Source of the DNA: Cyanobacteriota bacterium
Lineage (GTDB): Bacteria > Cyanobacteriota > Cyanobacteriia > PCC-6307 > Cyanobiaceae
Direction: 5' to 3'
Assembly (NCBI GenBank): GCA_046340795.1
Contig: JBKDSV010000009.1
Span: forward strand, 13,505 to 77,504
DNA length: 64,000 bases
This document shows positions 2,093 to 64,000 of the stretch, one piece after another. The number at the start of each line of letters is the position of its first letter. Within the stretch, counting starts at the first letter, position 1. The notes below the pieces were generated by a model, which was not told the origin of the DNA, did not search any database, and worked only from the letters and a program-made list of their open reading frames with translations. Both the position numbers and the translations under genes were made by a program.

Positions 2093-3262
2093 TCAGCGAC
2101 GCACGGAAAGCGCCGCACCCAAGCCACCGCGCACATCATCAGGTGCCAGCCGTCCATCTTGGTCAGTGTCAAGGGCATCAAACACCGCATCACTTCCCAG
2201 CCATTCCTCACGGGTGATGCAGCCGTCACCATCAAGATCATTCAAGAGGAAGATCTCATGCACGGCATGGGTAAAGGCAGCCTTCCCCTCAAGGGCAGCG
2301 AGACGGTGAGCGAGTTGCACCTCCAACGTTTCAATGGCTTTGGAAAAGCCTCGGATGCCTTCGTCGAGCTTTTCACTGGCCATGCGATCCTCCGTCATCA
2401 TGCTGAGGAACAAGGGCTTGTCAACATGAATCTTTTCCTGTGTTTCCCTAGGATTTTTCGCATCAAGCTTGCGTGTCAAAGGACCTTCCTGGTTGCGCAG
2501 TTGTTCCATCAACGCAGGTGCAATCGTTAGCAGATCACAACCGGCCAGTTCAATGATCTCGTCAATGTTACGAAAACTGGCACCCATGACTTCAGTCTTG
2601 TAACCATAGGTTTTAAAGTAATTGTAAATTTTGCTCACAGAGATCACGCCTGGATCCTCAGGGCCAGGAAAACTCTCCCGACCGGTGTTGGCTTTGTACC
2701 AATCCAGGATGCGACCCACAAAGGGGGAAATCAGGGTGACACCGGCTTCTGCACAAGCCACCGCCTGGGCGAATCCGAAGAGCAGGGTGAGGTTGCAGTG
2801 AATGCCTTCCTGTTCCAGCCGTTCGGCAGCGCGGATGCCCTCCCAGGTGGAGGCGACTTTGATCAACACCCGCTTGCGTGACACGCCAGCCTGCTCATAC
2901 AGGCCAATCAGCTTGCGGGCCTTTTGAATCGTGGCTTCCGTGTCGTAGCTGAGTCGCGCATCCACCTCCGTCGAAACGCGGCCGGGAACAATGCGCAGAA
3001 TCTCCTTGCCGAAAGTGACACTGATCTCATCTAGGGCCTCGGCCACCACCTCCTCCACAGGGGCACTCTCCCCCAGCACCTCCCGGGATTCTCTGAGGGT
3101 GCGATCGATCAGCTCCTGATACGTGGGGATCTGGGCGGCGGCGAGGATCAGGGAAGGGTTGGTGGTGGCGTCCCGAGGGGTGAATTGGCGGATGGCCTCA
3201 ATGTCGCCCGTGTCGGCAACGACAACGGTCATCGTTGCCAGTTGTTCAAGCAGGTTGGTCAT
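2093..3262 (-). CDS. tal: Transaldolase with C-terminal EF-hand pair
   Basis: [36 protein letters not shown]; tail contains [12 protein letters not shown] and [12 protein letters not shown]. Confidence 0.96.
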
Positions 3263-3368
3263 GCTGATCGTCCGTCCCTGACAGGTCCACGCCTCACGCT
3301 AACCAGCGGATCCCGTTCGACCAACAGTCCCGGGGCGGCTTGTGGGAATCCATACAAGCGCAGAACCC

Positions 3369-13599: not shown

Positions 13600-14088
13600 T
13601 CAAGCGGCGGGTCTGGCTTTGCTCTGCTCCCTGCGGGGCTGGAGCTCGTCGGTGCGTAGATCTATGGCGTCCAGGCGCTGGCGGATGGCGATCAATTCCG
13701 CGAGAATGCGGCTGAGAAGCTCCTGGGTCACCGTGGAGGGGGTATTGAGCACTTCAACTGTGACTTCCTTGATGCGCAAGACATCGCGGGCAAAGCGGGC
13801 CACCTCGTTGGCATGAAACAACAGGGGTTGCTTGATATCGCTACGAAACTCCGGGTTGAGTCTGCGGGGGTTGAAGGGAGGATTGACGTTGCGTGGATCG
13901 GTATTGGTGTAACGGTACACGGAAGCTCTGGAACGATTCAGGGCCTTTTGAACGTCTTCAATCCCAATCAAACAGCCGCTGCCATTGCCTGATTCATAAG
14001 CTGGAGGGGGGACATCGGTTACGTCTGCTGGATGCTCGCCAGGAAGGTTGACAGGTTCGTGGGAAGCCTGGCTCGGTTGAGCAAACAT
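13600..14088 (-). CDS. Conserved cyanobacterial HTH-like protein (often labelled resolvase)
   Basis: IEDVQKALNRSRASVYRY HTH-like segment and C-terminal coiled coil; no serine recombinase catalytic domain visible. Confidence 0.65.
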   Translation of the reverse strand: MFAQPSQASHEPVNLPGEHPADVTDVPPPAYESGNGSGCLIGIEDVQKALNRSRASVYRYTNTDPRNVNPPFNPRRLNPEFRSDIKQPLLFHANEVARFARDVLRIKEVTVEVLNTPSTVTQELLSRILAELIAIRQRLDAIDLRTDELQPRREQSKARPAA

Positions 14089-14231
14089 AAAGGTCAGCCT
14101 CGTTGGGTCCTGGCAGGAAAGGTCTTGCGAACTTAGCAGAGGTTTTCGGTCTCACGAGCCCCATTGGACACACGCGCAGATGCCCACCTCATGGCCAACT
14201 GATAGGTTCCGTGCGGACGCTCAACCTCCTC

Positions 14232-16037
14232 ATGCGCAGCTCTCGCCTGCTGCTAGTGACGCTTCGCGATGAGCCCGCAGAGGCAGAGATCATCTCCCAC
14301 AAACTTCTGCTGCGGGCCGGTTTCATCCGCCGCGTTTCCGCTGGCGTCTACGCCTACCTGCCGCTGATGTGGCGGGTGCTCCGCAAGGTGTCGGCGATTG
14401 TTCGTGAGGAAATGGACACCATTGGCGCCCTGGAGACCCTTCTGCCCCAACTCCAGCCCGCCGAGCTCTGGCAGCGCAGCGGCCGCTGGGCGGGGTACAC
14501 CGCTGGCGAAGGCATCCTGTTTCACCTGCACGACCGGCAGGGACGGGAGTTGGGATTGGGGCCGACCCACGAGGAGGTGGTGACCGCCCTGGCGGCGGAA
14601 TTGTTGCGCTCCTATCGCCAGCTGCCGGTTTGTCTTTATCAGATCCAGAGCAAATTCCGCGATGAGATCCGCCCCCGTTTCGGTTTGATGCGGGCCAGGG
14701 AATTCATCATGAAGGACGCCTATTCCTTCCATGCGGACGAGGACAGCCTGCGCCAGGCCTATGGCCAGATGGATGGAGCTTACAGGCGCATTTTCAAGCG
14801 CTGTGGGCTGCACACCGTCGCCGTCGAAGCGGACAGCGGCGCCATTGGCGGTTCGGCCAGCCAGGAATTCATGGTGACGGCGGAGGCGGGGGAGGATCTG
14901 ATTCTGGCCAGCCCGGACGGCTGTTATGCCGCCAACCTCGAGCGGGCCGTCTCTCTGCCCCCGGACGCCCTTCCCCTGGCGAGCCAACCCTGCCGCGAAC
15001 TGCCCACCCCCGGGCAGCGGACGATCGCCGATCTTTGTGGCGCCCACGGGTTCCATCCTTCTCAAATCGTCAAGGTGCTCCTGCTGCTGGCCCGGTTTGC
15101 GGAGGGTGCCCCCCAGCCAGTGCTGGTCAGTCTGCGGGGGGATCAGCAGTTGAACCTGGTGAAGCTCTCCAATGCCCTCCAGGCGCGGGTGACAGGCCAG
15201 GGAGCCCTGCTTCAGGTGAGTCCGATCGAAGCGGATCATCTGCTGGCGGAAGGTCTGGCACCCCTACCGTTCGGATCCTTGGGGCCCCACCTCGCCGATG
15301 CGGCCTTCGCGGCAGCCAAACACTGGCGTCCCCGGCTGCTGCGCCTGGCGGATGCCACAGCTGCGGAGCTGACCTGTTTCGTCTGCGGCGCCAATCGCCA
15401 GGATGTGCACCTGGTGGGGGCCAGCTGGGACAGCCTGGCGGTCGCGCCGGAGAGCCTCGATCTGCGGGAGGCCCAAAGCGGCGATCGCTGCCTGCGGAAT
15501 CCGAGCCAGCGCCTGGAGGCGGCCCGGGGCATTGAGGTGGGTCACATTTTTCAGCTGGGTTGCAAGTACTCCGAAGCTCTGGGAGCCTCCTTCACCACCG
15601 AGCAGGGCGAGGAGCAAGCCCTGTGGATGGGCTGTTATGGCATCGGCGTCTCCCGGCTCGCCCAGGCGGCGGTGGAGCAACTGCATGACGACCAGGGCAT
15701 CTGTTGGCCCGTGTCGATCGCTCCGTTCGAGGTGATCGTGGTGATCGCCAATACCCAGGACACAACCCAGGTGGCCGTAGCGGAGACGCTCTATGACCAC
15801 TTGCGCCAGCAGGGGCTGGAGACCCTGCTGGATGACCGTCAGGAACGGGCGGGCGTGAAATTCAAGGATGCGGATCTGGTGGGCATTCCCTACCGGGTTG
15901 TCGTGGGCCGTGGGGCCGCCTCGGGCCAGGTGGAAGTGGTCTGCCGCCGCGGGGGCGATCCCCTGGCGCTGGAGGCCACCGCAGCTGTTGACTGGTTGCG
16001 GGAGCGGGTGCGTCAGGAGCGCTCGGGACTGGCTTGA
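14232..16037 (+). CDS. proS: Proline--tRNA ligase
   Basis: EIISHKLLLRAGFIR, LGPTHEE, FRDEIRPRFGLMRAREFIMKDAYSF, GIEVGHIFQLG, GCYGIGVSR. Confidence 0.97.
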   Translation: MRSSRLLLVTLRDEPAEAEIISHKLLLRAGFIRRVSAGVYAYLPLMWRVLRKVSAIVREEMDTIGALETLLPQLQPAELWQRSGRWAGYTAGEGILFHLHDRQGRELGLGPTHEEVVTALAAELLRSYRQLPVCLYQIQSKFRDEIRPRFGLMRAREFIMKDAYSFHADEDSLRQAYGQMDGAYRRIFKRCGLHTVAVEADSGAIGGSASQEFMVTAEAGEDLILASPDGCYAANLERAVSLPPDALPLASQPCRELPTPGQRTIADLCGAHGFHPSQIVKVLLLLARFAEGAPQPVLVSLRGDQQLNLVKLSNALQARVTGQGALLQVSPIEADHLLAEGLAPLPFGSLGPHLADAAFAAAKHWRPRLLRLADATAAELTCFVCGANRQDVHLVGASWDSLAVAPESLDLREAQSGDRCLRNPSQRLEAARGIEVGHIFQLGCKYSEALGASFTTEQGEEQALWMGCYGIGVSRLAQAAVEQLHDDQGICWPVSIAPFEVIVVIANTQDTTQVAVAETLYDHLRQQGLETLLDDRQERAGVKFKDADLVGIPYRVVVGRGAASGQVEVVCRRGGDPLALEATAAVDWLRERVRQERSGLA

Positions 16038-36395: not shown

Positions 36396-38930
36396 ATGAC
36401 TCATGCCAACCACGCTGGGCGCTTTCTTCCGATCCTTCGCGACTTGCATGCCAGGGGCTTAAACACGGAGCTTGTCAGCTTGATTCAGCAGCTCAAGCAG
36501 GCTGGCTATCCCAAATCTATCCTCCGGGCTTTTGAACTTTTATCCCAACAGGATTCTGTCCCGCATCCTTATCATTATGAAGGGTCAGAATCTCCAAGAA
36601 ACCTCGGAATAATTGTCTCATCTCCGCTTGTAAGTGTCATCGTTGTCGCCTTTAACTCCGCCAAAGATCTGGAGCGCTTACTTTGCAGCCTTCAATCACA
36701 AAGTTATACAAATTTGGAGTTGATTATTGTCAATAATAGTGAAGAAGATTTGCGCAGCTGTCTTGCGGATTGGAAAAGAAGCCTGAAGTATCTAAACGCG
36801 CCTAATCCAGGATTTGCGGAGGCCAACAATCTTGGCTTGGAGGAAGCCTCGGGCGATCTTCTACTTCTTTTGAATCCAGACACAGAGCTCCAAAAGGAAA
36901 GCATCAAAGAGCTTGTGCATGCGCTCGAGATTGATGCCACAGCGGCCGCCGCCATTCCACTGATTTATTTTAGCAGGCCATTTTACAAGGTTTCGTTAAC
37001 AAGTCAAGGACAAGCTTTTTTTGCAATTGATCTTGAGTCGTTAGTCACACATTTGCACTACAAAAAAATTTTTGTGCGTGATGGAGAAAGGAGAGAGGAT
37101 GGACTGATTCACTGTAATATAGATGGGCATGTCTCCTTTGATGTTGCCTTAAATCCAGACAGCAACTGGCTCGAACTTGCTGTTGTGCCAATTGTGGAGT
37201 TTGATCAAGAACTATGCTTGCAAATTAAGTTTGAAGGCAGTGGTGAGAAGCCAACATTGTTGTATGTCGGCCGGCATAGGCAAACGGTAAAAAGTTTTGT
37301 TAGTGCACGAGTGCATTCGAGCTCTCGATATTTGATCAACAATGCGGGATCTGGCATCCGTCCTGGAAGTGACGAGCCGTACGACATTGGCTTTGGCGAG
37401 GTTGATATTGGCAAGTTTGCGAATCGAGCGTATAGACAAGCACTCTGCGGCTGCTGCGCCTTATTGCGACGAGACTTATTTATCAAGAGAAAGATTTTTA
37501 TCAGTGAATTTTTTGCTTACTATGAAGATTCTGAGCTAAGCTACTGGCTACGATCTAATCAGATGAATATCCTGTATGTTCCTTCCGCCATTGTCTATCA
37601 TCGTCATTCGGAAAGTACGGGAGAATTCAGTCCACTATGGAAAAGACTTGTCTCTAGAAGTGCTGAAATTTACCACTCCATTGGGCGGACTGAGAGCAGC
37701 AGAGCTCTCGACATACGGATTGAATCCTTTGATGACTATAAGACCATTAAACATCAAGGGCTGATCAGTACGTTAAAACGCTATGACGCTGGGCTGGCAG
37801 TCAAAACCCTGAATGAATTAATCACTCGTACAAAACGAATCACTGTTGGAATTTATAATTCTTTTTGGGACAGCTTTGGCGGTGGAGAAAGACATGCCTT
37901 GGATATGGCAGAAATCGCGTTGCAATGCGATTGCGAAGTCTATCTCATTTCAGAAAACCATTTTTCGCTTGATAGGTTGCGACAGTTCTTTCAGACAAGC
38001 CTGACTGGAGTGAAGACACTCACACCTGGTGAGGTCAGTGAATCATTAACACAAAGATTCGATATATTTATAAATTCGACTTTTTACTCAAGGCTGGTTT
38101 CACGCTCAAAAATATCCTATTACATCGTTTCATTTCCACACAAGCATGTGAATCTAGAGTTCCTTTCCTCCTATGTATTCTTGCATAATTCTGAGTATAC
38201 ATATAGATGGGCACTTCGTTATTGGGGAGATCATCGAGCCAAGCTTTTGCTGCCGGTCCTTTCCTTTCAAGCACAGAGCAGGACAGAGAGCATGCAAGAG
38301 CGCACGAGCTGTTTGGCGGATGCCAAAAGTTTGATGATCTTATCGGTCGGAAGATTTAACTATGAGGGACATTGCAAGAATCAACACATGATTGCCAATG
38401 TCTTTGCCCGTCTGTCGCGTTCAAGCCTGATCAGTGAGCAGTGGCAGCTTGTCATGGCTGGTTCCGTCGATTCAAGAATGGATGCTTCCATCTCTCATTT
38501 CAAAGACACTGAAAAAATTCTCGCTGGTTGCCAAGCAAGGTTGGTCGCCAATGCTGAAAGGGAAGAAATTGAAAAACTTTATTGTTCCGCTTCAATTTAT
38601 ATCCATGCGGCTGGACTCGGTGTAGATCCAATCAGTGCACCAGAAAAGAATGAGCATTTTGGCATCGCACCATTTGAATCCTTGCTCCATGGCTGTTTGC
38701 TCATTGCCTTCCATCACGGAGGTCCCGCAGCAATGCTCAACAAGAGTCAACAAGGTTTATCCTATCGTGATGAGGATGAATTGGAGCAAAGACTCTTGCA
38801 GGCCGTCTCTAACTGTGAACAGGAGTCCCTGGAGGATCGGCAGAACAGGATTCGGATGTGTCTCCAATATTCCCTTGACGTGGTTGAGCAGTCAATGATC
38901 TCTGCTCTTTCCCTTTTTCACTCCGTTTGA
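36396..38930 (+). CDS. Bifunctional GT2 + GT4(GT-B) glycosyltransferase, AT-rich
   Basis: VSVIVVAFNS, NPGFAEANN, LLLNPD, FFAYYEDSELS (GT2); FGGGERHA, LSVGRF, EHFGIAPFESL (GT4). Confidence 0.88.
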   Translation: MTHANHAGRFLPILRDLHARGLNTELVSLIQQLKQAGYPKSILRAFELLSQQDSVPHPYHYEGSESPRNLGIIVSSPLVSVIVVAFNSAKDLERLLCSLQSQSYTNLELIIVNNSEEDLRSCLADWKRSLKYLNAPNPGFAEANNLGLEEASGDLLLLLNPDTELQKESIKELVHALEIDATAAAAIPLIYFSRPFYKVSLTSQGQAFFAIDLESLVTHLHYKKIFVRDGERREDGLIHCNIDGHVSFDVALNPDSNWLELAVVPIVEFDQELCLQIKFEGSGEKPTLLYVGRHRQTVKSFVSARVHSSSRYLINNAGSGIRPGSDEPYDIGFGEVDIGKFANRAYRQALCGCCALLRRDLFIKRKIFISEFFAYYEDSELSYWLRSNQMNILYVPSAIVYHRHSESTGEFSPLWKRLVSRSAEIYHSIGRTESSRALDIRIESFDDYKTIKHQGLISTLKRYDAGLAVKTLNELITRTKRITVGIYNSFWDSFGGGERHALDMAEIALQCDCEVYLISENHFSLDRLRQFFQTSLTGVKTLTPGEVSESLTQRFDIFINSTFYSRLVSRSKISYYIVSFPHKHVNLEFLSSYVFLHNSEYTYRWALRYWGDHRAKLLLPVLSFQAQSRTESMQERTSCLADAKSLMILSVGRFNYEGHCKNQHMIANVFARLSRSSLISEQWQLVMAGSVDSRMDASISHFKDTEKILAGCQARLVANAEREEIEKLYCSASIYIHAAGLGVDPISAPEKNEHFGIAPFESLLHGCLLIAFHHGGPAAMLNKSQQGLSYRDEDELEQRLLQAVSNCEQESLEDRQNRIRMCLQYSLDVVEQSMISALSLFHSV

Positions 38931-53199: not shown

Positions 53200-53269
53200 G
53201 GCCGGCAGGGGAGTCAAGCGGGTCTCGGAGGGCCTCAGATAAAGTGTGCGGCGACCCAGGTGCCTGTTC

Positions 53270-56011
53270 ATGGCGGATCCAACCGGACAGTCCCCGGGCG
53301 CAGGCGAGAACAACCCGGGAGACAAGGGTCCAGGGGAAGGCGATGGACGCATCATCCAGACGGATCTGCGCAATGAAATGTCGCGCTCCTACCTCGAGTA
53401 CGCGATGAGCGTGATCGTGGGGAGGGCTCTGCCTGACGCCCGCGATGGTCTCAAACCCGTGCATCGTCGCATCCTCTACGCGATGTATGAGCTCGGTCTC
53501 ACCAGCGATAGGCCCTACCGCAAATGCGCGAGGGTGGTGGGTGAAGTGTTGGGCAAATATCACCCCCATGGCGACACGGCTGTCTATGACGCCCTGGTGC
53601 GCATGGCGCAGGATTTCTCGATGCGCATGCCCCTCATCGACGGGCACGGCAACTTCGGTTCGGTGGACAATGACCCGCCAGCCGCCATGCGCTACACCGA
53701 ATCGCGTTTGCAGGCGCTCACTAGCGACAGCCTGCTGGAAGACATCGAAAGTGAAACCGTCGCATTCATTGACAATTTCGATGGCTCCCAACAGGAGCCC
53801 ACCGTGCTGCCGGCCCGCATCCCCCAGCTCCTGCTCAACGGCTCCACGGGCATCGCGGTGGGCATGGCCACCAACATTCCCCCCCACAACCTGGGGGAGC
53901 TGGTGGATGGCCTGCAGGCCCTGATTGCCAACCCGGAGCTCGATGACCGGGCCCTGATGGTCCTCATTCCCGGACCGGATTTCCCCACCGGCGGGCAAAT
54001 CCTTGGCCGCGCCGGCATCCGAGAGATGGCGCTCACCGGGCGCGGCTCGGTGACGATGCGCGGAGTGGCGAAGATTGAGACCATCGAGGTGCCTGGCCGT
54101 CCCGATCGCGACGCGGTGATCATCACCGAGCTGCCCTACCAAACCAACAAGGCGGCCCTGATCGAGCGGATCGCCGAGATGGTGAATGACAAGAAATTGG
54201 AAGGCATTGCTGACATTCGTGATGAGAGCGATCGCGATGGCATGCGCATCGTCATCGAGCTGCGTCGCGACGCCTATCCCCAGGTGGTGCTCAATAATCT
54301 CTTCAAGCTGACGCCACTACAGAATAACTTCAACGCCTACATGCTGGCGCTCGTTGGCAATGAACCGGTGCTTCTCACCCTGCGCCGGATGCTGCAGGTG
54401 TTCCTCGAATTTCGGGTCGAGACGATTGAACGCCGCACCCGCTACCTGCTGCGCAAAGCCGAAGAACGGGATCATATTCTGCTCGGCCTGCTGATTGCTC
54501 TTGAAAACCTCGACGCCATCATTGCCCTGATTCGTGCCGCCGCTGACACGGCCACAGCCCGGGAGCAATTGATGGGTCAATTTGGCCTTGGCGATGTGCA
54601 GGCAGATGCGATCCTGCAGATGCAATTGCGGCGGCTCACGGCTCTGGAAGCCGACAAGATCCGGCTGGAGCACGAAGACCTGCTGGCGAAAATCACTGAT
54701 TACAACGACATCCTCGCCCGCCGCGAACGGGTGTTTGACCTGATCAGCGACGAGCTGCAAGCCATTCGCGGCAAATACAGCTCTCCCCGCCGCACCGAAA
54801 TCCTCGATCTCGAAGGCGGACTGGAGGACATCGACCTGATCGCCAACGAACGGTCGGTGGTGCTGCTCACCGAAACCGGCTATCTCAAGCGCATGCCCGT
54901 CAGCGAGTTTGAGGCCACCAGCCGCGGCACCCGTGGCAAAGCTGGCACCCGCTCTCAGGGAGAGGAGGCAGTGAAGCTCTTCATCAGCTGCAACGACCAC
55001 GACGCCATGCTGCTGTTCAGCGATCGCGGCGTGGTGTATTCCCTGCCGGCCTACCGGGTGCCCCTCTGCAGTCGCACCGCCAAGGGAACGCCGATCGTGC
55101 AGCTGCTACCCATTCCCCGGGAGGAGGCCATCACGTCTGTGTTGGCGGTGAGCACCTTCGGGGAGGATGAGCAGCTGGTGATGCTCACCAGCAAGGGCTA
55201 CATCAAGCGCACCACTCTCTCCGCCTTTGCCAACATCCGTGCCAATGGCTTGATCGCGATCTCCTTGGAGGAGGGGGATGCCCTGCGCTGGGTGCGGTTG
55301 GCCCTCCCCGGTGACAGTGTGCTGATCGGCTCGCTGAAGGGGATGACCATCCACTTCCGGCTCAACGACGCGGAGCTGCGCCCCCTGGGCCGCACCGCCC
55401 GAGGCGTGCGGAGCATGAACCTGCGGGGCGGCGATCGGCTGGTGAGCATGGACGTGCTGCCGGCGGAGCTGGCGGATCGGGTGGCCGAGGGCGCCAACGC
55501 GGAGCAAGCAGAGGGAGACGATCTGCTCAGCGCCGAAGGTCCCTGGGTGTTGGTGGCCAGCGCCAGCGGGCTGGGCAAGCGGGTGCCCGTGCAGCAATTC
55601 CGGCTGCAAAAACGAGCGGGCATGGGGCTGCGGGCGATCCGCTTCCGCCGGGAGGGGGATGTGCTGATCGGGCTGAAAGTGCTCGGAAGTGGTGAAGAAC
55701 TCCTGCTAGTCAGTGAGAAGGGAGTGATCGTGCGCATGCAGGCCGATGCGGTGCCCCAGCAATCGCGAGCGGCCACAGGGGTGCGCTTGCAGCGGCTTGA
55801 CGCTGGCGACCGCCTGGCCGAGGTGGTGTTGGTGCCGCCAGCGGCGGTGACGCTGGAGTCCATGACTGCGATACCGGCGGCGGCGGCCCGGGCAGACAGG
55901 GTCGCGCAGGCTGCGGTTCTTCCAGAGGCGGCGGTGGAGCGGGGCTTGGAGACGGAGGCGAAGGCCGCTGCAGAGGCAGAGGCGCGTTCAAAGGCCGAGG
56001 CGGATGGATAG
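53270..56011 (+). CDS. gyrA: DNA gyrase subunit A
   Basis: [41 protein letters not shown], GyrA-box-like TRGTRGK. Confidence 0.97.
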
Positions 56012-56095: not shown

Positions 56096-56929
56096 ATGGC
56101 GAAGTACGCCCTGTGCATCGGCATCAACGACTATCCAGGCACGCAGAATGATTTGCGCGGATGTGTCAACGATGCCAACGATTGGGCGGCCACCCTGGCG
56201 AGCCGTGGTTTCCGTGTGAGCCAGCTGCTCAACAGCCAGGCCACCAAGGCCGCGCTGGTGGCGGGCTTCCAGCAGCTGATCAGCGGCGCCAACAGTGGCG
56301 ACACCATCGCCATCACCTTCTCCGGCCACGGCACCCTGGCCCCCGACAACAGCGGTGATGAGATTGACGGCTACGACGAAGCCCTCTGCCCCTACGACAT
56401 CCATCAAGGCCAGGTGCTTCTGGATGATGAGATCCACCAGCTGTTCGCGCAGCGGGCCGCTGGCGTGCGGCTGATTTTGATCTCCGACAGCTGCCACTCC
56501 GGCACGGTGACCCGCAACGCCCCTGCCGATCCCGACGCCACCGACGCTCCCCGCATTCGCTTTCTCCCCCTGGCCAGCTGGTTGCCAGACGCGGAACTGC
56601 CCAGAGGCGCTGGCGGCAAACCCCTCGCCAACCTGCCCATCACTCAGGTGTTCTCCCCCTGGGCCGGCGTGGTGCGTTCAGCGGGGGATCTGCTACTGGC
56701 CGGCTGTGAGGAGGGGCCCGATCACTTCAGCTACGACGCCAACTTCAACCAACGCGCCAACGGAGCCTTCACCTATTACGCCCTGCGGACCTTGAAAACC
56801 CTTCCCCCCACGGCCAGCTACCGCGACTGGCACGCCGCCATCCGCCGTTGTCTGCCCTCCACCAACTATCCGCAGAAGCCGCAACTGATGGGCACCAAAG
56901 CCACCTTGTCCTCCCCCGTCCTGGCCTGA
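56096..56929 (+). CDS. Stand-alone metacaspase (peptidase C14)
   Basis: ALCIGINDY, LRGCVND, FSGHG (His codon 56327), GDEIDGYDEAL, ISDSCHSG (Cys codon 56492), GAFT, QKPQL. Confidence 0.93.
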   Translation: MAKYALCIGINDYPGTQNDLRGCVNDANDWAATLASRGFRVSQLLNSQATKAALVAGFQQLISGANSGDTIAITFSGHGTLAPDNSGDEIDGYDEALCPYDIHQGQVLLDDEIHQLFAQRAAGVRLILISDSCHSGTVTRNAPADPDATDAPRIRFLPLASWLPDAELPRGAGGKPLANLPITQVFSPWAGVVRSAGDLLLAGCEEGPDHFSYDANFNQRANGAFTYYALRTLKTLPPTASYRDWHAAIRRCLPSTNYPQKPQLMGTKATLSSPVLA

Positions 56930-56939
56930 GGGGAGTGTC

Positions 56940-59900
56940 ATGCCGCCTCCGCCCGCTCTTGAGCCCGCCCTACCCCCCCCTTCCGTTCTGAGGGGGGTGG
57001 CACTGGAGAACCCGCCGCCGCCGGCCCTGTTGCGGCCCCAGGCCAGACCGGCGGGCAGGGATGTGGGCGCCAGTCCCTTGGCAACGGCGCAGATGCCGGA
57101 CGAGGACCTCCTCTCGCCAGCCTTTGTGCGGGTGGATCGCGCCTTCGACCTGACGGCCAGCGCCCGGGAGGCCACCGCCATCGTCTCGCCCCTGACGGAC
57201 TTGCCCGACGAGCAAGTGGTGGTGCTGGAACTCGTGGAGGACGGCGGCACGGCCATCACCACGGCGGGGGACTTGCGGCGGCGACAGGAGCATTGGCTCT
57301 CCACCGCCGCAGCGACCAGCCAGAGCCAGCGGGGTGTGGTGCCCACAGGACTCTTCAGCCGGCTCTACACCCTCACCTTTGGCGACGATGGCCTGCAGCG
57401 GGTGGTGGAGCAGCGGCTCAAGGCACTGGCGCGGGAGCAGCTGGGCGAAGCCGTGGGAGAGGCGATCCAGATCAATGCCTCCTGGCTGGCCACCAAGCTG
57501 CTGCTGAAACTGACCGAAGACCGCCTTCCCTGCCCGCCGGGTCTCTACCGCTGGCGGGGTGGCGCCAGCGGAGGGGGCCCCCCCCTGGCGGCTGATGACC
57601 CCACCTTGCGGGCGGATGCCGCCTGTGGACTGCTGGTGTTTGTGCACGGAACGGGTTCAAACAGCCAAGCTGGCTTCGGCGAGCTGGCCACAGCGGGTGC
57701 GGGGATCTGGCCCTTGCTGGAGAGCGCCTACGGCGAGCGGATCTACGGCTTCGAACAGCAGACTTTTTCCGCCAGTCCGATTGACAATGCCCTCGCCCTG
57801 GCCCAGAGCCTGCCCTGCGGCGCCCGGTTGAATCTGGTGAGCCACGGCAGCGGTGGATTGGTGGCGGATCTGCTCTGCGCCGAGGGCATTGAGGATGCTT
57901 TGATCGAGGCCTATCGCTACCCGTCAGCCGAGAAGACGAAGCAGACCAGCCAGCGGGATGCGGCAGCCGCGGAGCAGAGGGAACGGCTGCGGCAGCTGCG
58001 CGGCGTGTTGGCGGAGAAGGCGTTGCGGATCGAGCGCTACGTCAGGGTCGCCAGCCCCGCCCGCGGCAGCCGCCTGCTGGGCGACAACCTCGACCTCTTT
58101 CTGTCGGTCCTCCTCTCCTTGATCAGTGGCCTGCCTGCGTTGGCGGGCCAACCGGCGGTGGCCGTGCTCAAGCGGTTGGTGCTGGATGTGGTGCGCCGAC
58201 GCCTGGATCCCTGCCTGATCCCGGGTCTGGCCGCCCTGGCACCCGATGCGCCGCTGGCGGCCCTGCTGGACCGACTTCCGCCCCGATCCGGCCTGGCCAT
58301 GGCCACCCTGTCCGGCCAGCGGAGCGGGGGCCATCCCCTGCAGAGGCTCGCGCTGCTGTTCAGCGACACCCTCTTCTTCCAACGCTGCCCCAACGATCTG
58401 ATCGTCGATACCGACGCCATGCAGGCCGGCCTTGCCCGCCGCGCCGGGGCCCACGGTTGGCTGGAGAAGGGTCCGAGCGTGAACCACTTCCACTATTTCG
58501 CGCGTCCGTCCTGCGCCCGGGCCCTGGCGCGCTGGCTCACGGAGCGCCAGCCACTGGAGCTGGGCGAGTTTCTCCCCCTCGCGAGCAACCCGGGGGAGCG
58601 GGAGCGCCTTCGCACCCGGGAGAGCGATGCCCGGGAGGAAGCCAGCGCCGCCCGAGGGCGTGGGGCGTCTGTCGAAGCCAGCCAGCCGGTGGTGGTGGTG
58701 GTGCCCGGATTCATGGGCTCCCATCTCTGGCGCCAGACCCGCCAAGAGCGGATCTGGTTTGATCCTCGCCATGGAATCGGTGAACGCCTGCGTCAGCTGA
58801 GCGACCTTCAGGACGCGGCGCTTGAGCCGGAAAAGCTGTTGGATCTCATCTATGGCGACCTCTGCCGAACGCTGCTCGAGAGCCACCGGGTCGTGCGTTT
58901 TCCCTACGACTGGCGCCAGCCCCTCGAGCTCCTGGCCGAACGCCTTGGGGCGGTGCTGCGTCCGTTGGTGGCGGAGGCGGAGGAACGGCGCCCTGTGCGC
59001 CTCCTGGCCCATGGCATGGGGGGACTGGTGGTGCGGGCCTGCATGGCCCGGGACCCCGATCTCTGGCAGCGGTTGATCCAGCTGAAGGGCGCCCGCTTCC
59101 TGATGTTGGGCACCCCCAACCACGGCTCCCACGCGCTCGTGGAAACCCTCCTGGGCCAGTCGCCCATGATCCGCAACCTCGCCAGGGTGAGCCGGGACCT
59201 GGAGTTGCGGGAGCTGGTGGCGCTGGTGGCTGGTTTTCCGGGAGCCTTGCAACTGCTGCCCCGACCGGGTGCCGAGTCGCTGGATGGCGCCGCCGAGGAC
59301 GACCTGTTGAGCGCCCATGGCCCCTTCAACGGCCTGAGCTGGTATGCGGAGGAGCTCTGGACACAGTTGAAAAGCCACAATCGCGACCGTTGGTTCGGCG
59401 ACCAGCTCGGCGCCACCCCCGATGCCGCCACCCTGACCCGAGGACGCTGGCTGTGGGAACAACCCGCCAGCCTCGCTGAGCTCTCCGGCGATCCGGATCG
59501 GGTGATCTACGTGCACGGTCAGGCTCGCCGCACCCCCTGCGGCGTCACCCTGCGGCAAGGACAGCTGCGGATGCTCAGCACCACGGCGGGCGATGGAGTC
59601 GTCACCTGGAACGCGGGCCGCTGGGAGGGCATCGGCCACTACTACCGGATGGAGGCCGATCACGGCAGCCTCCCCTGCCGCCGCGACCACTTTCCCGCCT
59701 TGGTGGAACTGCTGCGGGAGGGGGGAACCAACGCCCTTGCCCCCATGCCCCGCACCCGGGGGAGCGGGGACGCGCCGCCTCCCGTCCTGCCTTGGCAGCC
59801 CGGCCCCACCCCCTTTCCCAGCGAAGAGGAGCTATTCCGCAGCCTGGTGGGGGGGCAGCCCCTGCCCCCGGAGGAATCGGCCGCCACGGCGGCCCTGCAG

Positions 59901-62840
59901 GTGTCCTGCCACGCCATGGACGTGCGCTACGTCAACCAACCCGTGATGGTGGGGCACTACGAGGCGGATGCCATCGCCGCGGCTGAAGCCCTGATCGACC
60001 GCGACCTCGTGGCTGGCGAGCTGAGCAGTCGCAATCGTCTCGGTCTCTACGCCGGTCCGCGCGGAACGGCCACGGTGGTGCTGATGACGACAAGTGCCAG
60101 GGAGCTGCGGGAGGGCGGTTGTCGTGGCGCAGTGGTGATCGGCCTCGGCACCATGGGCGAACTGTCGACCGTGGCCCTCACCGAGGCGGTGCGGGTGGGC
60201 ACGCTGCGCTACCTGCTGCAACTCCTGGATCGGGCGACTGGCGCCACCAAACCCGCACTGGTGGTGGGCCTGGCCAGCCTTCTGATCGGCCAGAACTCGG
60301 GCAATGACATTCACATCGACGATTCCGTCACCGCTCTGGTGGAGGGGGTGCTGGCCGCCAACGAGCAGTTCGCCACCACCTTCCCCGCCATGGCCCTGCG
60401 GGTGGGACAGCTGCAGTTGGTGGAGCTCTATCTCGACACGGCGATCACCGCCACCCGGGCGTTGGCAGGCCTCGAAAGCCGTCTGAACCGCGATGGCGTA
60501 CGGGTGTTGAACGTCGAGCGCGAGCTGCAGTTCGGCAAGGGATGGCGGCACCGGCTGGCGGCGGCGTGGGAGAGTGGCTATTGGCCCCGCATGCTGATCA
60601 GCAATGGGGAGCCCGCCAAGGGCGATGGGCCCACGGCGGACAGCGAGGGGCAACGTCCGGGAGTGCAGCTGGCCAACACCCTGAGCTTCTCCTTCCTGGG
60701 ACAGCGGGCCCGGGCGGAGACTCTGCAGCAGAAACGGCAGAGCGGCTTGGTGGAGGCACTGGTGGCGGCCTGCATCCAAACCCCCACCACCCATCCGGAT
60801 CTGTCCCGCACCCTGTTTCAACTGCTGGTGCCCTCATCGTTCAAGCAGCTGGCCCGCCAGTTGGAACAGCTGGTGCTGGTGTTGGATGACACCACCGCCA
60901 ATGTGCCATGGGAACTGCTCATGGCGGATGACAAACCCCTGGCCCTGCAGCTCGCGGTGGTGCGCCAGCTGCAGGCTTCCCGCTTTCGCGAGCGGTTGCA
61001 CAAGACCACCAGCCGCAATGCCTATGTGATCGGCAACCCAAGCAGTGAAGGCTTTTTCAAGGTGTTCGTCGGCGAGGGGAGCATGGGCTCCACGGGACTG
61101 GCCAGTCTGGAGGGAGCCCGCCAGGAGGCGGAGAGCGTGCTCAGCTTGCTGAGAGAGCGGGCATACGACTGCGAAGAGTCGATTCAAGAGGAGAACGCCG
61201 TGGATGTGATCAACAAGCTTTATCGCCGTCCCTATCGCCTGCTCCACATCGCCGGCCACGGGGTGTACGACCATCCCAGCCGATCGGGCGAACGGCGCAG
61301 CGGCGTGGTGCTTGCCGGCGGCCTGTTGATCACCGTCTCTGAGATCGAGGCGAGGGAGGTGGTGCCGGATCTGGTGTTCCTCAACTGCTGCCACCTGGGC
61401 ACGGTGAAGCGCGAACCCGTGGCCTTCAACCGGCTGGCGGCGAGCGTGGCGGCACAACTGATCGAGATGGGGGTGCGCGCGGTGGTGGCCTGTGGCTGGG
61501 CGGTGGATGACACGGCGGCCCTGGCGTTCGCGCAAACCTTCTACACCGCGATGCTGCAAGGCGTCCCCTTCGGCAATGCGGTCTTCCTAGCCCGCAAGGA
61601 GGCGCACGCCGTCAATCCCAACAGCACCACCTGGGGCGCTTACCAGGCCTATGGCGATCCGGACTACCAACTGGAGGAGTCCCGAGGCGGCTCCAGCCCT
61701 GGCCTGGAACCCGCCACGGCCGAGGCGGCGGAGCCAAGGCCCTGGTCATGGGTGACGCCGATGGAGTTGATCGATCAGCTCCAGCAGCTGGTGGTGCGTC
61801 TTCGCCAGGGTGACAGCCAGGCTCCGGTGCGCCAGTCCCTCCCGGCCGAGCTGGAGTCCCTGCTGAAGACCGCCCCACCCGCCTGGCTGAGCCAGGCGGA
61901 GGTCGCCGTGGCCGTGGCTGACGTCTACGCCGCCTGCGGGGGAGAGCATCAGGAGGAGGCCTGCCGTCATTACCTGGCCGCCATTCGGGCCCATCAAGGC
62001 ACCGATCGGTTGCCGATTCGCGCCATTGAGCAACTGGCCAACCTGGAGGCCCGGCTCGGCGAACGGAGCGATGACGCCCCCCGTGTGATGGCGGCCATCG
62101 AGCGCCTGCGGGCCTTGCTCCGCATCGCCAGCGCAGGAGCCACCCCCGCCACAGGCTCGGCGGCGGCGGGGCCTCCGGAGTGGCAGGCCCTGCTCGGGAG
62201 CGCCTGGAAGCGTCTGGCCGCCCTGCGCGCGCGGGCACTGGTCGCCTCCGGCCGCGCGGGCAAGGAAGCGCTCCAGACCGTGATGGAGCCCCTGGAAGCC
62301 GCCATCGCGGCCTACGGCCTGGCGGGCGGCGATCTCTGCAACCAGTTGAATCTCCTCGCCCTGCAGGCGGTGCGGGATCTCCACCGTGCCGCCGATGCCC
62401 AGGCGATCCGGCACGCCCAGGCCCTGGCCGAGGAACACCAGGGCCTCGCCCGAAGCCAGGCCATTCCCACCTTCTGGAGCGCTGTGGCCGGGGCCGATGC
62501 CCTGCTGGTGGGGCGCCTTGTGGACCACCAGCTGGCGGCGGAGGGCGCCCCGGGGGAGGCGACAGCCCGCCAGGTGCTGGAGAGCTACCAGGAGGTCTTC
62601 CTCAACGTTCGCGCCACCCTCTTGGAACGGGAATCGGTACTGGAGCAGCTCTCCCTGCTGGCGGACGTGGCGCGTGCCCGGGGCAGGAGCCGCACGGATC
62701 TCTGCCCCGCGGCAGCCCTCCTCGCCCAACGGCTGGAGACCATCGAACGCGCCCTGCGAGAGTCGGCGCTGGGCAGGGCCTCGCCGCTGGCGGCGGGCGG
62801 TGACAGGGAGGAGGAGGACGCGATGGAGACCCTGAGCTGA
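56940..62840 (+). CDS. 1966-aa multidomain protein: two alpha/beta-hydrolase-like domains, CHAT protease, helical TPR-like tail
   Basis: VFVHGTGS/VSHGSGG; VVPGFMGS/FPYDWR/AHGMGG/LGTPNHGS; CHAT VPWELL, LHIAGHG, VFLNCCH, GWAVDD, WGAYQAYGDP. Confidence 0.9.
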   Translation: MPPPPALEPALPPPSVLRGVALENPPPPALLRPQARPAGRDVGASPLATAQMPDEDLLSPAFVRVDRAFDLTASAREATAIVSPLTDLPDEQVVVLELVEDGGTAITTAGDLRRRQEHWLSTAAATSQSQRGVVPTGLFSRLYTLTFGDDGLQRVVEQRLKALAREQLGEAVGEAIQINASWLATKLLLKLTEDRLPCPPGLYRWRGGASGGGPPLAADDPTLRADAACGLLVFVHGTGSNSQAGFGELATAGAGIWPLLESAYGERIYGFEQQTFSASPIDNALALAQSLPCGARLNLVSHGSGGLVADLLCAEGIEDALIEAYRYPSAEKTKQTSQRDAAAAEQRERLRQLRGVLAEKALRIERYVRVASPARGSRLLGDNLDLFLSVLLSLISGLPALAGQPAVAVLKRLVLDVVRRRLDPCLIPGLAALAPDAPLAALLDRLPPRSGLAMATLSGQRSGGHPLQRLALLFSDTLFFQRCPNDLIVDTDAMQAGLARRAGAHGWLEKGPSVNHFHYFARPSCARALARWLTERQPLELGEFLPLASNPGERERLRTRESDAREEASAARGRGASVEASQPVVVVVPGFMGSHLWRQTRQERIWFDPRHGIGERLRQLSDLQDAALEPEKLLDLIYGDLCRTLLESHRVVRFPYDWRQPLELLAERLGAVLRPLVAEAEERRPVRLLAHGMGGLVVRACMARDPDLWQRLIQLKGARFLMLGTPNHGSHALVETLLGQSPMIRNLARVSRDLELRELVALVAGFPGALQLLPRPGAESLDGAAEDDLLSAHGPFNGLSWYAEELWTQLKSHNRDRWFGDQLGATPDAATLTRGRWLWEQPASLAELSGDPDRVIYVHGQARRTPCGVTLRQGQLRMLSTTAGDGVVTWNAGRWEGIGHYYRMEADHGSLPCRRDHFPALVELLREGGTNALAPMPRTRGSGDAPPPVLPWQPGPTPFPSEEELFRSLVGGQPLPPEESAATAALQVSCHAMDVRYVNQPVMVGHYEADAIAAAEALIDRDLVAGELSSRNRLGLYAGPRGTATVVLMTTSARELREGGCRGAVVIGLGTMGELSTVALTEAVRVGTLRYLLQLLDRATGATKPALVVGLASLLIGQNSGNDIHIDDSVTALVEGVLAANEQFATTFPAMALRVGQLQLVELYLDTAITATRALAGLESRLNRDGVRVLNVERELQFGKGWRHRLAAAWESGYWPRMLISNGEPAKGDGPTADSEGQRPGVQLANTLSFSFLGQRARAETLQQKRQSGLVEALVAACIQTPTTHPDLSRTLFQLLVPSSFKQLARQLEQLVLVLDDTTANVPWELLMADDKPLALQLAVVRQLQASRFRERLHKTTSRNAYVIGNPSSEGFFKVFVGEGSMGSTGLASLEGARQEAESVLSLLRERAYDCEESIQEENAVDVINKLYRRPYRLLHIAGHGVYDHPSRSGERRSGVVLAGGLLITVSEIEAREVVPDLVFLNCCHLGTVKREPVAFNRLAASVAAQLIEMGVRAVVACGWAVDDTAALAFAQTFYTAMLQGVPFGNAVFLARKEAHAVNPNSTTWGAYQAYGDPDYQLEESRGGSSPGLEPATAEAAEPRPWSWVTPMELIDQLQQLVVRLRQGDSQAPVRQSLPAELESLLKTAPPAWLSQAEVAVAVADVYAACGGEHQEEACRHYLAAIRAHQGTDRLPIRAIEQLANLEARLGERSDDAPRVMAAIERLRALLRIASAGATPATGSAAAGPPEWQALLGSAWKRLAALRARALVASGRAGKEALQTVMEPLEAAIAAYGLAGGDLCNQLNLLALQAVRDLHRAADAQAIRHAQALAEEHQGLARSQAIPTFWSAVAGADALLVGRLVDHQLAAEGAPGEATARQVLESYQEVFLNVRATLLERESVLEQLSLLADVARARGRSRTDLCPAAALLAQRLETIERALRESALGRASPLAAGGDREEEDAMETLS

Positions 62841-62907
62841 CCTGGACGGTCTGGCCGCCAGGCCATGCGGGAAAGTGGCTGGGTGATCGGCATGGAGGCG
62901 GGCGGCG

Positions 62908-64000
62908 GTGAGCGGAGGCAAGGCCAAGCAGGCAGGGAGTGTGGATGGGCTGGTGATCGGCGCTGGACCGGCGGCCCTGGCCATTGCCGCGGAGCTGGGG
63001 GAGCGGGGGCTGAGCGTGGCCGCCCTCGCTCCCGAGGATCCAACCGTCCCCTGGGCCAACACCTACGGCATCTGGGCGCAGGAGGTGGAGGCCCTGGGCC
63101 TGGGCCACCTGCTCTCCCACCGCTGGAGTGACACGGTGAGCCACTTTGGTTCGGGGGGCTCCGCTGGCTCCGGCGGCCCCCCCTCAGCGGAGCTCGACCC
63201 GGACGGGCTGATCCACCACGGCTGTGCCTATGGCCTCTTTGATAAGGCGGCGCTGCAGGGCCACTGGCTGGAACGCTGTGCCCGCTCTGGCGTCACCTGG
63301 GTGCGGGGACGGGCGGAGGCCATCCGCCACGATGCCGCACTGTCCACGGTCACCAGTGCGGAGGGGGAGGAGTGGCGGGCGCGCCTGGTGGTGGATGCCA
63401 GTGGCCATGCCCCGGTCTTTGTGCGCCGCGGCAACGATGGCCCCGTGGCGGGTCAGGCCGCCTACGGGATTGTGGGCCGCTTCAGCGTCCCCCCGATCCC
63501 GCCGGGGCAATTCGTGTTCATGGATTACCGCCCGGATCACCTGCCGGAGGCCGAGCGGCGGCAGCCACCCACGTTTCTCTACGCCATGGATCTGGGTGAG
63601 GGGATCTTTTTTGTGGAGGAGACGTCGCTGGCCCTGGCGCCGGCGGTGCCCTTCCCCACCCTGCAGGCCCGCCTGCGGCGGCGCCTGGCCCATCGCGGGG
63701 CCGAGGTGCGGCAGGTGCTGCATGAGGAGTTTTGCCTCTTCCCCATGAATCCTCCCCTGCCCGATCAACGGCAACGGGTGGTGGGTTTCGGCGGGGCGGG
63801 GGGAATGGTGCATCCGGCTTCGGGGTACATGGTGGGTGGCCTGCTGCGGCGAGCGCCCGATCTGGCGGACGCCATCGCCTCCGGTCTGACGGCGGGGCTG
63901 GTGGGCTCAGCGTTGGCGGAGGTGGCCTGGGGGGGGCTTTGGAGCCCGGAGCTGCGCTGGAAGCACGCCTTTTTTCGCTTCGGACTGGAGAAGTTGATGC
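62908..64000 (+). CDS. crtL: Lycopene cyclase (3' truncated by window edge; absent from the ORF track)
   Basis: Manual translation VIGAGPAALAIA, PWANTYGIW, VVDASGH, GQAAYGIVG, FVFMDYR, FVEETSLA, HPASGY. Confidence 0.92.
   Translation, partial: MSGGKAKQAGSVDGLVIGAGPAALAIAAELGERGLSVAALAPEDPTVPWANTYGIWAQEVEALGLGHLLSHRWSDTVSHFGSGGSAGSGGPPSAELDPDGLIHHGCAYGLFDKAALQGHWLERCARSGVTWVRGRAEAIRHDAALSTVTSAEGEEWRARLVVDASGHAPVFVRRGNDGPVAGQAAYGIVGRFSVPPIPPGQFVFMDYRPDHLPEAERRQPPTFLYAMDLGEGIFFVEETSLALAPAVPFPTLQARLRRRLAHRGAEVRQVLHEEFCLFPMNPPLPDQRQRVVGFGGAGGMVHPASGYMVGGLLRRAPDLADAIASGLTAGLVGSALAEVAWGGLWSPELRWKHAFFRFGLEKLM

Follow-up and report, generated by a model that had tools for sequence, protein, structure and literature searches.

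The question raised by this locus is whether two adjacent protease genes of a cyanobacterium form one system of defense or cell death. Both lie in the window analyzed here, the whole 64-kb stretch of contig JBKDSV010000009.1, and they encode a small metacaspase (orthocaspase) and a giant protein that combines two alpha/beta-hydrolase folds with a CHAT protease domain and a C-terminal TPR-S-type domain. The original prediction saw in them an undescribed, self-contained cascade in which one protease activates the other, or both cut a host target, after a signal has been sensed. Comparison of related loci indicates that the pair is a real, conserved and horizontally moving module, whose metacaspase is dispensable in many lineages. 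The reading that we favor, with a probability of about 0.5, is that the giant protein acts as a sensor-gated CHAT initiator and the metacaspase as a PCaspase-like executioner, with lipase output in most members of the family and proteolysis alone in the window lineage.

Judged by coding signal and homology, both open reading frames (ORFs) are real genes rather than chance ORFs, since their GC content at third codon positions (GC3) is coding-like (0.82 for the metacaspase gene and 0.84 for the giant gene, as in neighboring genes) and full-length homologues occur in many phyla. The two genes are co-oriented and 10 nt apart, as predicted, and the spacer (GGGGAGTGTC) is too short for a promoter or a terminator. 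Promoter and terminator scans, which were uninformative, returned nothing promoter- or terminator-like at the 56929/56940 junction. Because the short spacer carries GGAG, and because the gaps between the paired genes are likewise short in most related loci, co-transcription of the metacaspase and giant genes is likely. One freshwater metatranscriptome contained four short contigs, and another two, that match the giant gene at 100% identity; none of the metatranscriptome contigs (three RNA runs) spans the 56929/56940 junction, and DNA carry-over is a possible source of them.

A search of 185,579 species-representative genomes, one genome per species, gave at least 524 relatives. We fetched 80 related loci, 73 of them with a usable upstream flank, which span Cyanobacteriota, Burkholderiales, Rhodocyclales, Thiotrichales, Chromatiales, Nitrospirota and Desulfobacterota and also include Myxococcota, Mycobacterium, Gemmatimonadota and Chloroflexota. 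Full-length homologues of the giant protein (∼1800 to 2100 aa, 40 to 73% identity) were found in Cyanobacteriota, Beta- and Gammaproteobacteria, Nitrospirota, Desulfobacterota and other groups, where they are annotated at most as "CHAT domain-containing protein"; the family is common in freshwater Cyanobium, Accumulibacter, Aromatoleum and Nitrospira. Of the 73 loci, 41 have a co-oriented metacaspase gene immediately before the giant gene (44 have one within 2 kb), and the paired loci belong to Cyanobacteriota, Burkholderiales, Rhodocyclales, Thiotrichales, Chromatiales, Nitrospira and Desulfobacterales. No gene family other than the metacaspase is common to more than one-fifth of the loci. 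In the reverse direction, three metacaspase orthologues on long contigs were each followed by a giant gene. The pairing that the original prediction had seen at one locus thus recurs across phyla.

The two proteins also diverge together. Their distances were correlated in a Mantel test with r = 0.44 over 36 pairs and r = 0.80 over the 26 class-1 metacaspases, values that none of 2,000 permutations reached, and the metacaspase was the more conserved partner (mean distance, 0.39 versus 0.54 for the giant protein). Because adjacency recurs across phyla and the pair co-diverges, the two genes form a conserved functional unit. In a neighbor-joining tree of the giant protein, loci with and without a metacaspase are interleaved and taxonomy is not followed; cyanobacteria fall into two separate clades, one of them nested among Betaproteobacteria, and in the second Cyanobium clade the cassette occupies a different insertion site. 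This departure from the species tree, together with the different insertion sites in Cyanobium, points to horizontal mobility. Phage genomes and IMG/VR viral contigs held no relatives, and the cassette is therefore not phage-borne.

Three of the related loci are unusual in their setting or gene structure. In Cyanobium sp. FGCU-6 (L081, 8538-16274) the cassette sits within a hox/hyp hydrogenase cluster, between hypA and hypB, and its giant gene is intact (1912 aa) although uncalled in the source annotation. At locus L083 (9901-16027) the giant gene is split near the R940 linker, with 1083 aa on the hydrolase side and 838 aa on the CHAT side; this could reflect a frameshift or a natural two-chain version. 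The cultured Aromatoleum aromaticum EbN1, whose genome is complete, carries the giant gene alone (L088, ebA5037), with no metacaspase; it is flanked by MlaC- and AsmA-family (lipid-transport) genes and a phasin gene.

The smaller protein is a metacaspase, with Pfam PF00656 (Peptidase_C14) scoring 4.8e-26 (92.3 bits against a cut-off of 21.4) and PDB sequence matches to GSU0716 (3BIJ, 4e-32) and to eukaryotic metacaspases (1e-12 to 1e-23). The catalytic motifs that had been cited for both proteins, those around His78 and Cys133 here and around His1440 and Cys1484 in the partner, were all located in the translations at those residues, and the His/Cys dyad is kept in all 45 partner caspases. The linker that follows the catalytic Cys is the usual processing region of caspases and metacaspases. 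In this family it carries a conserved PRxRF(L/M)P motif (R153 and R155) ∼20 residues past that Cys, which we regard as a candidate processing site. In two clades of the giant tree (L014, L015, L021, L023, L038, L048 and L052; and L047, L051 and L053) the upstream caspase is just 30 to 36% identical to the window metacaspase, against 50 to 86% elsewhere, and this difference suggests in-situ replacement by another caspase lineage.

The anatomy of the giant protein was examined with AlphaFold2 models of residues 1-980 (mean predicted local distance difference test [pLDDT] score, 82; predicted template modeling score, 0.83) and 961-1966 (pLDDT, 81), which were compared with the PDB by Foldseek; excised regions were also scanned separately against Pfam. 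The N-terminal half matched lysosomal phospholipase A2 (LPLA2; 4x92, 1e-8), LCAT, Tle4 (4r1d, 5e-7) and family I.5 lipases, while at the sequence level the family profile picked up nothing in the PDB beyond marginal LCAT/LPLA2 matches. Pfam knows the first hydrolase only as DUF7379, and a conserved hydrophobic, lid-like segment was seen in it by hydropathy at residues 383-405. The LCAT match of the second hydrolase stood at 6.8e-4 (residues 650-738) in the full protein and at 7e-5 on the excised region. Apart from the one lid-like stretch, the giant protein has no transmembrane segment, and it has no signal peptide. An ARAGORN call of tRNA-Pro(CGG) within the giant ORF (57735-57813, minus strand) was rejected as a false positive; Rfam finds none there.

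Farther along the chain, the fold of the region after the hydrolases resembles macro domains and the N-terminal domain of leucyl aminopeptidase (LAP-N), with Foldseek matches to leucyl aminopeptidases (6ome, 6e-4; 3kzw; 7y1s), TTHA0132 (2dx6) and the PARP14 macro domain (3q6z); the excised region had no Pfam match. The CHAT domain matched Csx29 (8d9f_A, 1e-5), the SAVED-CHAT filament (8tl0, 3e-5) and separase (9hm7, 8e-4), and its H1440 and C1483/C1484 are invariant both in 16 and in 68 aligned sequences. At the C terminus, TPR-S was found in the full protein at 1.4e-4 (residues 1673-1795), below the gathering score, and hhalign aligned this domain with the TPR-S proteins encoded beside homologues at 94% probability (E, 1.4e-7; 209 columns). 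We presume it to be a sensor or oligomerization module. The predicted order of two hydrolases, CHAT and TPR was borne out by Pfam and Foldseek, but it had missed the macro/LAP-N-like domain. Sensing had been placed in the N-terminal domains, and this part of the prediction was not supported: those are lipase-type effector folds, and the signal would more plausibly be sensed by the C-terminal TPR-S-type and macro-like domains.

As shown in Table 1, the window protein departs from its family at the nucleophile elbows of both hydrolases, where the consensus reads HSRGG (hydrolase 1) and HSMGG (hydrolase 2). It is the only one of 69 genome-derived members without both serines; the second serine is also replaced by Gly in all cyanobacterial members and a few others. 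The sub-clade of its closest relatives (P0001-P0006, 65 to 73% identity) lacks both serines throughout, and most of its members keep intact ORFs of 1937 to 1974 aa (P0006 is shorter, at 1521 aa). Ser304 was considered as a shifted nucleophile and rejected: the close relative P0003 reads HGAGG, with Ala at that position. The Asp and His of both triads are invariant (Asp885 and His908 in hydrolase 2). Both lipase domains are thus probably catalytically dead in the window lineage, and the two cysteine proteases would be the sole intact catalytic centers of the pair. Since the serines were lost while the Asp/His residues and the CHAT dyad remain invariant, the lipase folds appear to be retained for a role other than serine-hydrolase chemistry.

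Two places in the giant protein are candidate cleavage sites. The Arg-Gly of the N-terminal domain lies in a loop modeled with pLDDT below 50 (residues 126-133) and flanked by variable sequence, and the RG itself is present in 65 of 68 aligned family members. Arg940 is 96% conserved and is followed by Gly, Ala, Ser or Asp.

Table 1. Positions in the window of the metacaspase and giant genes, their domains and key residues, and the flanking genes
Feature	Position	Strand	Details
gyrA, upstream housekeeping flank	53246..56011	+	Pfam DNA_topoisoIV 9e-159
Metacaspase/orthocaspase gene	56096..56929	+	ATG; 277 aa; 29.6 kDa; no signal peptide
Metacaspase His78	56327-56329	+	SGHG, motif start residue 76
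Metacaspase Cys133	56492-56494	+	DSCHSG, motif start residue 131
Intergenic spacer GGGGAGTGTC	56930..56939	+	10 nt; Shine-Dalgarno-like GGAG
Giant multidomain gene	56940..62840	+	ATG; 1966 aa; 212 kDa; pI 5.9
N-terminal domain	56940..57629 (residues 1-230)	+	no Pfam match
R131-G132	57330-57335	+	Arg-Gly in N-terminal domain loop; candidate cleavage site
Alpha/beta-hydrolase 1 (DUF7379)	57630..58619 (residues ∼231-560)	+	Pfam DUF7379 2.4e-20 (232-316); lipase fold matches
Hydrolase 1 nucleophile elbow HGSGG	57843-57857 (residues 302-306)	+	Gly303 replaces family Ser
Alpha/beta-hydrolase 2 (LCAT/LPLA2-like)	58686..59744 (residues ∼583-935)	+	Pfam LCAT; Foldseek
Hydrolase 2 nucleophile elbow HGMGG	59010-59024 (residues 691-695)	+	Gly692 replaces family Ser
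Arg940	59757..59759	+	linker between hydrolase 2 and macro-like domain; candidate cleavage site
Macro-like/LAP-N-like domain	59892..60509 (residues ∼985-1190, approximate)	+	Foldseek
CHAT protease domain	60801..61658 (residues 1288-1573)	+	Pfam CHAT PF12770 8.9e-31; 107.8 bits vs cut-off 24
CHAT His1440	61257-61259	+	AGHG, motif start 1438
CHAT Cys1483/Cys1484	61386-61391	+	LNCCH, motif start 1481
C-terminal all-helical TPR-S/MAP3K-TRAF-bd-type domain	61752..62789 (residues ∼1605-1950)	+	Pfam; hhalign; helical repeat in AlphaFold2 model
Lycopene cyclase gene, downstream housekeeping flank	62887..64000, running past window end	+	Pfam Lycopene_cycl 8.7e-67

Defense-type genes recur beside some of the homologues. 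Among 131 immediate neighbors of the 80 loci, the top Pfam families were TIR_2 (8), TPR-S (6), extra Peptidase_C14 (4) and PG_binding_1 (4), and PADLOC recognized ThsB-type TIR (ThsB1, 3e-52), SAVED-TIR, IetA and TRIP13 proteins. TIR genes accompany 12 of the 80 loci (∼15%), in unrelated lineages and often in operonic positions; they lie directly downstream of the giant gene in L051 and L042 and divergent from the metacaspase gene in one Cyanobium clade. TPR-S proteins are encoded after the giant gene in L017, L026, L041, L069 and L075, and their N-terminal domain gave no PDB match and a sub-threshold TIR_2 match alone. At loci without a metacaspase, a SIR2 protein (L045), a TIR-TPR protein (L036) or a clostripain (L075) may be encoded in its place upstream. 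Taken together, this is what one would expect of a conflict system whose partners are interchangeable, and it is a minority pattern.

Several individual loci bear on the same subject. A TIR-receiver-domain gene stands between the metacaspase and giant genes in L058 (5155-13379), and in L027 a ThsB-like TIR gene (13739-14238) overlaps the stop codon of the giant gene; these two are the best candidates for TIR-signal input. The clostripain-family (Peptidase_C11) gene of L075, from a Methylomirabilis metagenome-assembled genome (MAG), occupies the metacaspase slot at 3059-4456 and overlaps the start of the giant gene, so that another clan-CD protease seems able to replace the metacaspase. The second Cyanobium clade has a larger second caspase after the giant gene, which places three clan-CD proteases in a row, and several TIR genes divergently upstream. 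The larger caspase (L002 14142-16154, L011 14186-16273, L056 14240-16264 and L041 7485-9438) is 650 to 695 aa long and joins Peptidase_C14, with its dyad intact, to ∼370 aa of uncharacterized sequence. A distant homologue, ∼31% identical and comprising hydrolase 1 to CHAT alone, is encoded without a metacaspase on the mobilizable Azotobacter chroococcum plasmid NZ_CP066312.1 (L086), where it adjoins a type I restriction-modification system, a Fic protein gene, a recombinase gene and insertion sequence elements.

The setting in the window itself is plainer. The host is identified as a high-GC freshwater picocyanobacterium from a nearby CAAD-domain gene, a gyrA gene 91% identical to that of a Cyanobacteriota MAG, and the presence of the sequence in freshwater and lake metagenomes. 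Besides the flanking genes of Table 1, the cassette has a CAAD protein, an IMPDH-like protein and HcyBio among its neighbors, and the rest of the window is ordinary chromosome with genes for PriA, a sigma-70 factor, ChlI, a CLC channel and glycosyltransferases. The gyrA/cassette/cyclase order is shared by the related MAGs L001 and L009 and occurs as a variant in L034. No CRISPR or other repeat array was found in the 64-kb window, and the predicted lack of CRISPR, TIR and STAND genes nearby held as far as it was tested, by repeat scan, tblastn and Pfam search of the neighbors. As for gasdermin, the genes adjacent to the cassette are gyrA and the lycopene cyclase gene, and none appears in the 25 commonest Pfam families of the 131 neighbors. 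Elsewhere in the window, an 844-aa GT2+GT1 fusion glycosyltransferase gene (36396-38930, plus strand) has ∼45% GC against ∼67% for the genome; this region looks like a horizontally acquired island and probably serves cell-surface glycan variation.

We compared the pair with known systems. Our literature search found no paper describing a metacaspase with a giant hydrolase-hydrolase-CHAT-TPR-S protein, and no PADLOC or NCBIfam model covers it, so that in this respect the system is uncharacterized, as predicted, but the logic of the cascade has described precedents. In the type III-B CRISPR-CBASS system of Haliangium ochraceum, SAVED-CHAT cleaves and activates PCaspase (dyad H79/C146), and the activated PCaspase degrades many proteins and brings about abortive infection (Steens et al., bioRxiv 10.1101/2023.06.23.546230). 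There, as in the window, a CHAT protease is encoded beside a small caspase; the CHAT fold of the window protein matches the filament structure 8tl0, and the dyads, likened by position alone, nearly coincide (H79/C146 in PCaspase, H78/C133 in the window). By analogy, the initiator-to-executioner logic of SAVED-CHAT and PCaspase would be the natural model for the window pair. The window differs in having no SAVED domain by Pfam, no CRISPR/CBASS genes and no PCi, PCc-sigma or PCk, and its CHAT domain is embedded in a 1966-aa chain with two lipase folds and macro-like and TPR-S domains.

A second precedent joins a caspase to a hydrolase. The pairing of caspases with alpha/beta-hydrolases was predicted computationally (Kaur et al. 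2020, PMC7159879), and in Lysobacter capsici two R|G cuts by LcCaspase, whose catalytic residue is Cys129, convert a zymogen of the alpha/beta-hydrolase class into an active death effector (Evans et al. 2025, PMC12642450). Compared by description, the window pair likewise has a caspase-like gene adjoining a lipase-like alpha/beta-hydrolase; the catalytic Cys is at a similar position (Cys129 and Cys133), and the conserved Arg-Gly that precedes the hydrolase core in a flexible loop recalls the R|G activation sites. Unlike LcHydrolase, the window hydrolase is duplicated and fused to CHAT and sensor-type domains, and both of its nucleophile serines are gone.

The remaining resemblances concern single parts of the architecture. 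Craspase Csx29 (type III-E) is the best fold match of the C-terminal half (8d9f_A, 1e-5) and also combines CHAT with a helical-repeat domain, but this domain is N-terminal in Csx29 and is a C-terminal one of the TPR-S/MAP3K-TRAF-bd family in the window protein; the window has no CRISPR array, and neither Cas7-11/gRAMP nor Csx30/31 neighbors were found in it or in the sampled loci. Thoeris systems include a caspase-like effector (ThsE, type IV) and ThsI (type VIII), in which the TPR domain is the presumed sensor of TIR-made cyclic ADP-ribose (cADPR) (10.64898/2025.12.03.692087). Macro domains sense histidine-ADP-ribose (His-ADPR) in type II Thoeris. The giant protein bears TPR-S-type and macro-like folds, which are the signal-sensing domain types of these effectors, and ThsB-like TIR genes lie at ∼15% of related loci; unlike Thoeris, neither the window nor most loci have a TIR gene, and the accessible part of a 2025 survey does not name this architecture. 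For Borvo, a single-gene CHAT defense, the PADLOC BovA profile matched the CHAT region weakly (8.9e-5, 19.7 bits), but this match is confined to ∼160 residues in the core of CHAT (positions 508-665 of the 711 in the profile), and the rest of the giant protein and the metacaspase are absent from Borvo. With HetF and separase-type CHAT proteases the window protein shares the CHAT fold and dyad and, for HetF, a cyanobacterial host; its NCBIfam HetF score was 21.4 bits against a cut-off of 1200, and its family has spread horizontally far beyond cyanobacteria. The parts and the logic are therefore all of known kinds, and the architecture is uncharacterized without being categorically new.

We propose that the two genes constitute one mobile regulated-proteolysis module of the conflict type, acting in abortive infection or regulated cell death. 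The giant protein would serve as both sensor and initiator: its TPR-S/MAP3K-TRAF-bd domain, possibly with the macro-like domain, would perceive a trigger, plausibly an ADP-ribose-derived signal made by TIR at the loci with a ThsB-like TIR gene, and the trigger would activate the CHAT protease. CHAT and metacaspase would then act in series, in an order for which there are alternatives. CHAT may process the metacaspase in its post-Cys linker, at the PRxRF motif; an Arg-specific metacaspase may act on the giant protein, cutting it in the loop of R131-G132 and in the linker that holds R940; or each protein may process the other. In most family members, cleavage could release or unlock the tandem LPLA2/LCAT/Tle4-like lipases, leading to membrane attack. 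In the window lineage, because both lipase serines are lost, the output would be limited to proteolysis by metacaspase and CHAT, and the lipase folds would persist in a scaffolding, lid or regulatory role.

A number of observations weigh against this proposal. What we know of it here comes from sequence and predicted structure; PADLOC and NCBIfam scans of both proteins returned a generic caspase match and weak BovA and HetF matches, and no named system. The TPR-S match stayed below the gathering score even on the excised region (2e-5, 25.6 bits against 27.6). The most obvious effector activity is absent here, the nucleophile serines being gone. Around the cassette lie housekeeping neighbors (gyrA and lycopene cyclase), and the setting is likewise ordinary in Aromatoleum EbN1; the TIR, SIR2 and TPR-S partners of related loci had no tblastn match in the 64-kb window, no STAND partner was found there, and defense-type neighbors occur at a minority of loci. 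Finally, 29 of the 73 loci (∼40%) have no metacaspase within the fetched flank, so that the metacaspase is not essential to the function of the giant protein, and the RG loop and R940 are equally conserved where no metacaspase is adjacent, so that the cutter may be CHAT and need not be the metacaspase.

These last two points are also the strength of the view that the giant protein is a self-sufficient effector, which would process itself through CHAT at the RG and R940 sites and for which the metacaspase would be optional, whether it amplifies the response, serves as decoy substrate or inhibitor, or is an independent second effector. Separase-type CHAT proteases cut after Arg, and the occupation of the upstream slot by clostripain (L075), SIR2 (L045) or TIR-TPR (L036) also fits. 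We nevertheless hold this view to be rather unlikely: the metacaspase has changed less than the giant protein, co-diverges with it and always keeps its dyad, which speaks for a catalytic role under constraint in every locus that has it. Also unlikely, in our estimation, is a non-immune stress or regulated-proteolysis module, in which a CHAT-gated enzyme of lipid or envelope remodeling would be matured or turned over by the metacaspase and would be used not against phage but in starvation or stress, as in the metacaspase-linked cell death of phytoplankton. The lipase folds, the housekeeping context in the window and in Aromatoleum EbN1 (MlaC, AsmA-family and phasin genes), the stable synteny within one picocyanobacterial clade and the identical metatranscriptome contigs, which suggest expression in lakes, are all in its favor. 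It sits poorly with the patchy distribution and horizontal transfer of the family, with the recurrence of TIR/ThsB, SIR2, TPR-S and extra caspase genes beside homologues, and with the type I restriction-modification system that adjoins the distant relative on a plasmid; the repeated loss of lipase serines, moreover, is hard to square with the role of a metabolic lipase.

That loss could instead mark decay of a lipase-based system, leaving a non-working remnant in the window genome, where Ser303Gly and Ser692Gly occur together as in no other of the 69 members of the genome set. This we consider improbable, because the whole P0001-P0006 sub-clade shares the losses in ORFs that are mostly intact, both proteases still have their dyads and each lipase triad its Asp and His, GC3 is coding-like, and identical metatranscriptome fragments exist. 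The match of the model to Tle4, an effector of the type VI secretion system (4r1d, 5e-7), would fit an exported antibacterial lipase toxin, with the giant protein processed for secretion by the proteases, but with no signal peptide, no transmembrane segment beyond the lid-like stretch, no immunity or secretion-system genes seen next to the two genes here or at the sampled loci, and nucleophiles that are dead in the window protein, we give this explanation very little credence. There is, finally, a more ambitious form of the sensor-gated cascade, which we hold only as a tentative and rather doubtful idea. It is a three-tier death switch in which a TPR-S and/or macro-like sensor of a nucleotide-type or phage-derived signal would act on the CHAT initiator, the initiator on the PCaspase-like metacaspase executioner, and the executioner on tandem lipases unlocked by R|G cleavage, with the lipase-dead derivative of the abundant freshwater picocyanobacteria being purely proteolytic.

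If the sensor-gated cascade that we favor is true, CHAT-to-caspase cascades would not be confined to CRISPR/CBASS loci; they would also occur as independent modules of two genes that include a sensor, and in these modules lipase effectors may be part of the same polypeptide. The members of the family with and without a metacaspase, TIR partners or lipase serines offer natural comparisons of how such a cascade is wired. Should the three-tier switch prove true, the two genes would merge two proteolytic logics that have so far been described separately and would open metacaspase-linked cell death in phytoplankton to molecular study. For picocyanobacteria, the favored cascade would supply a concrete protease pair for regulated cell death or phage defense.

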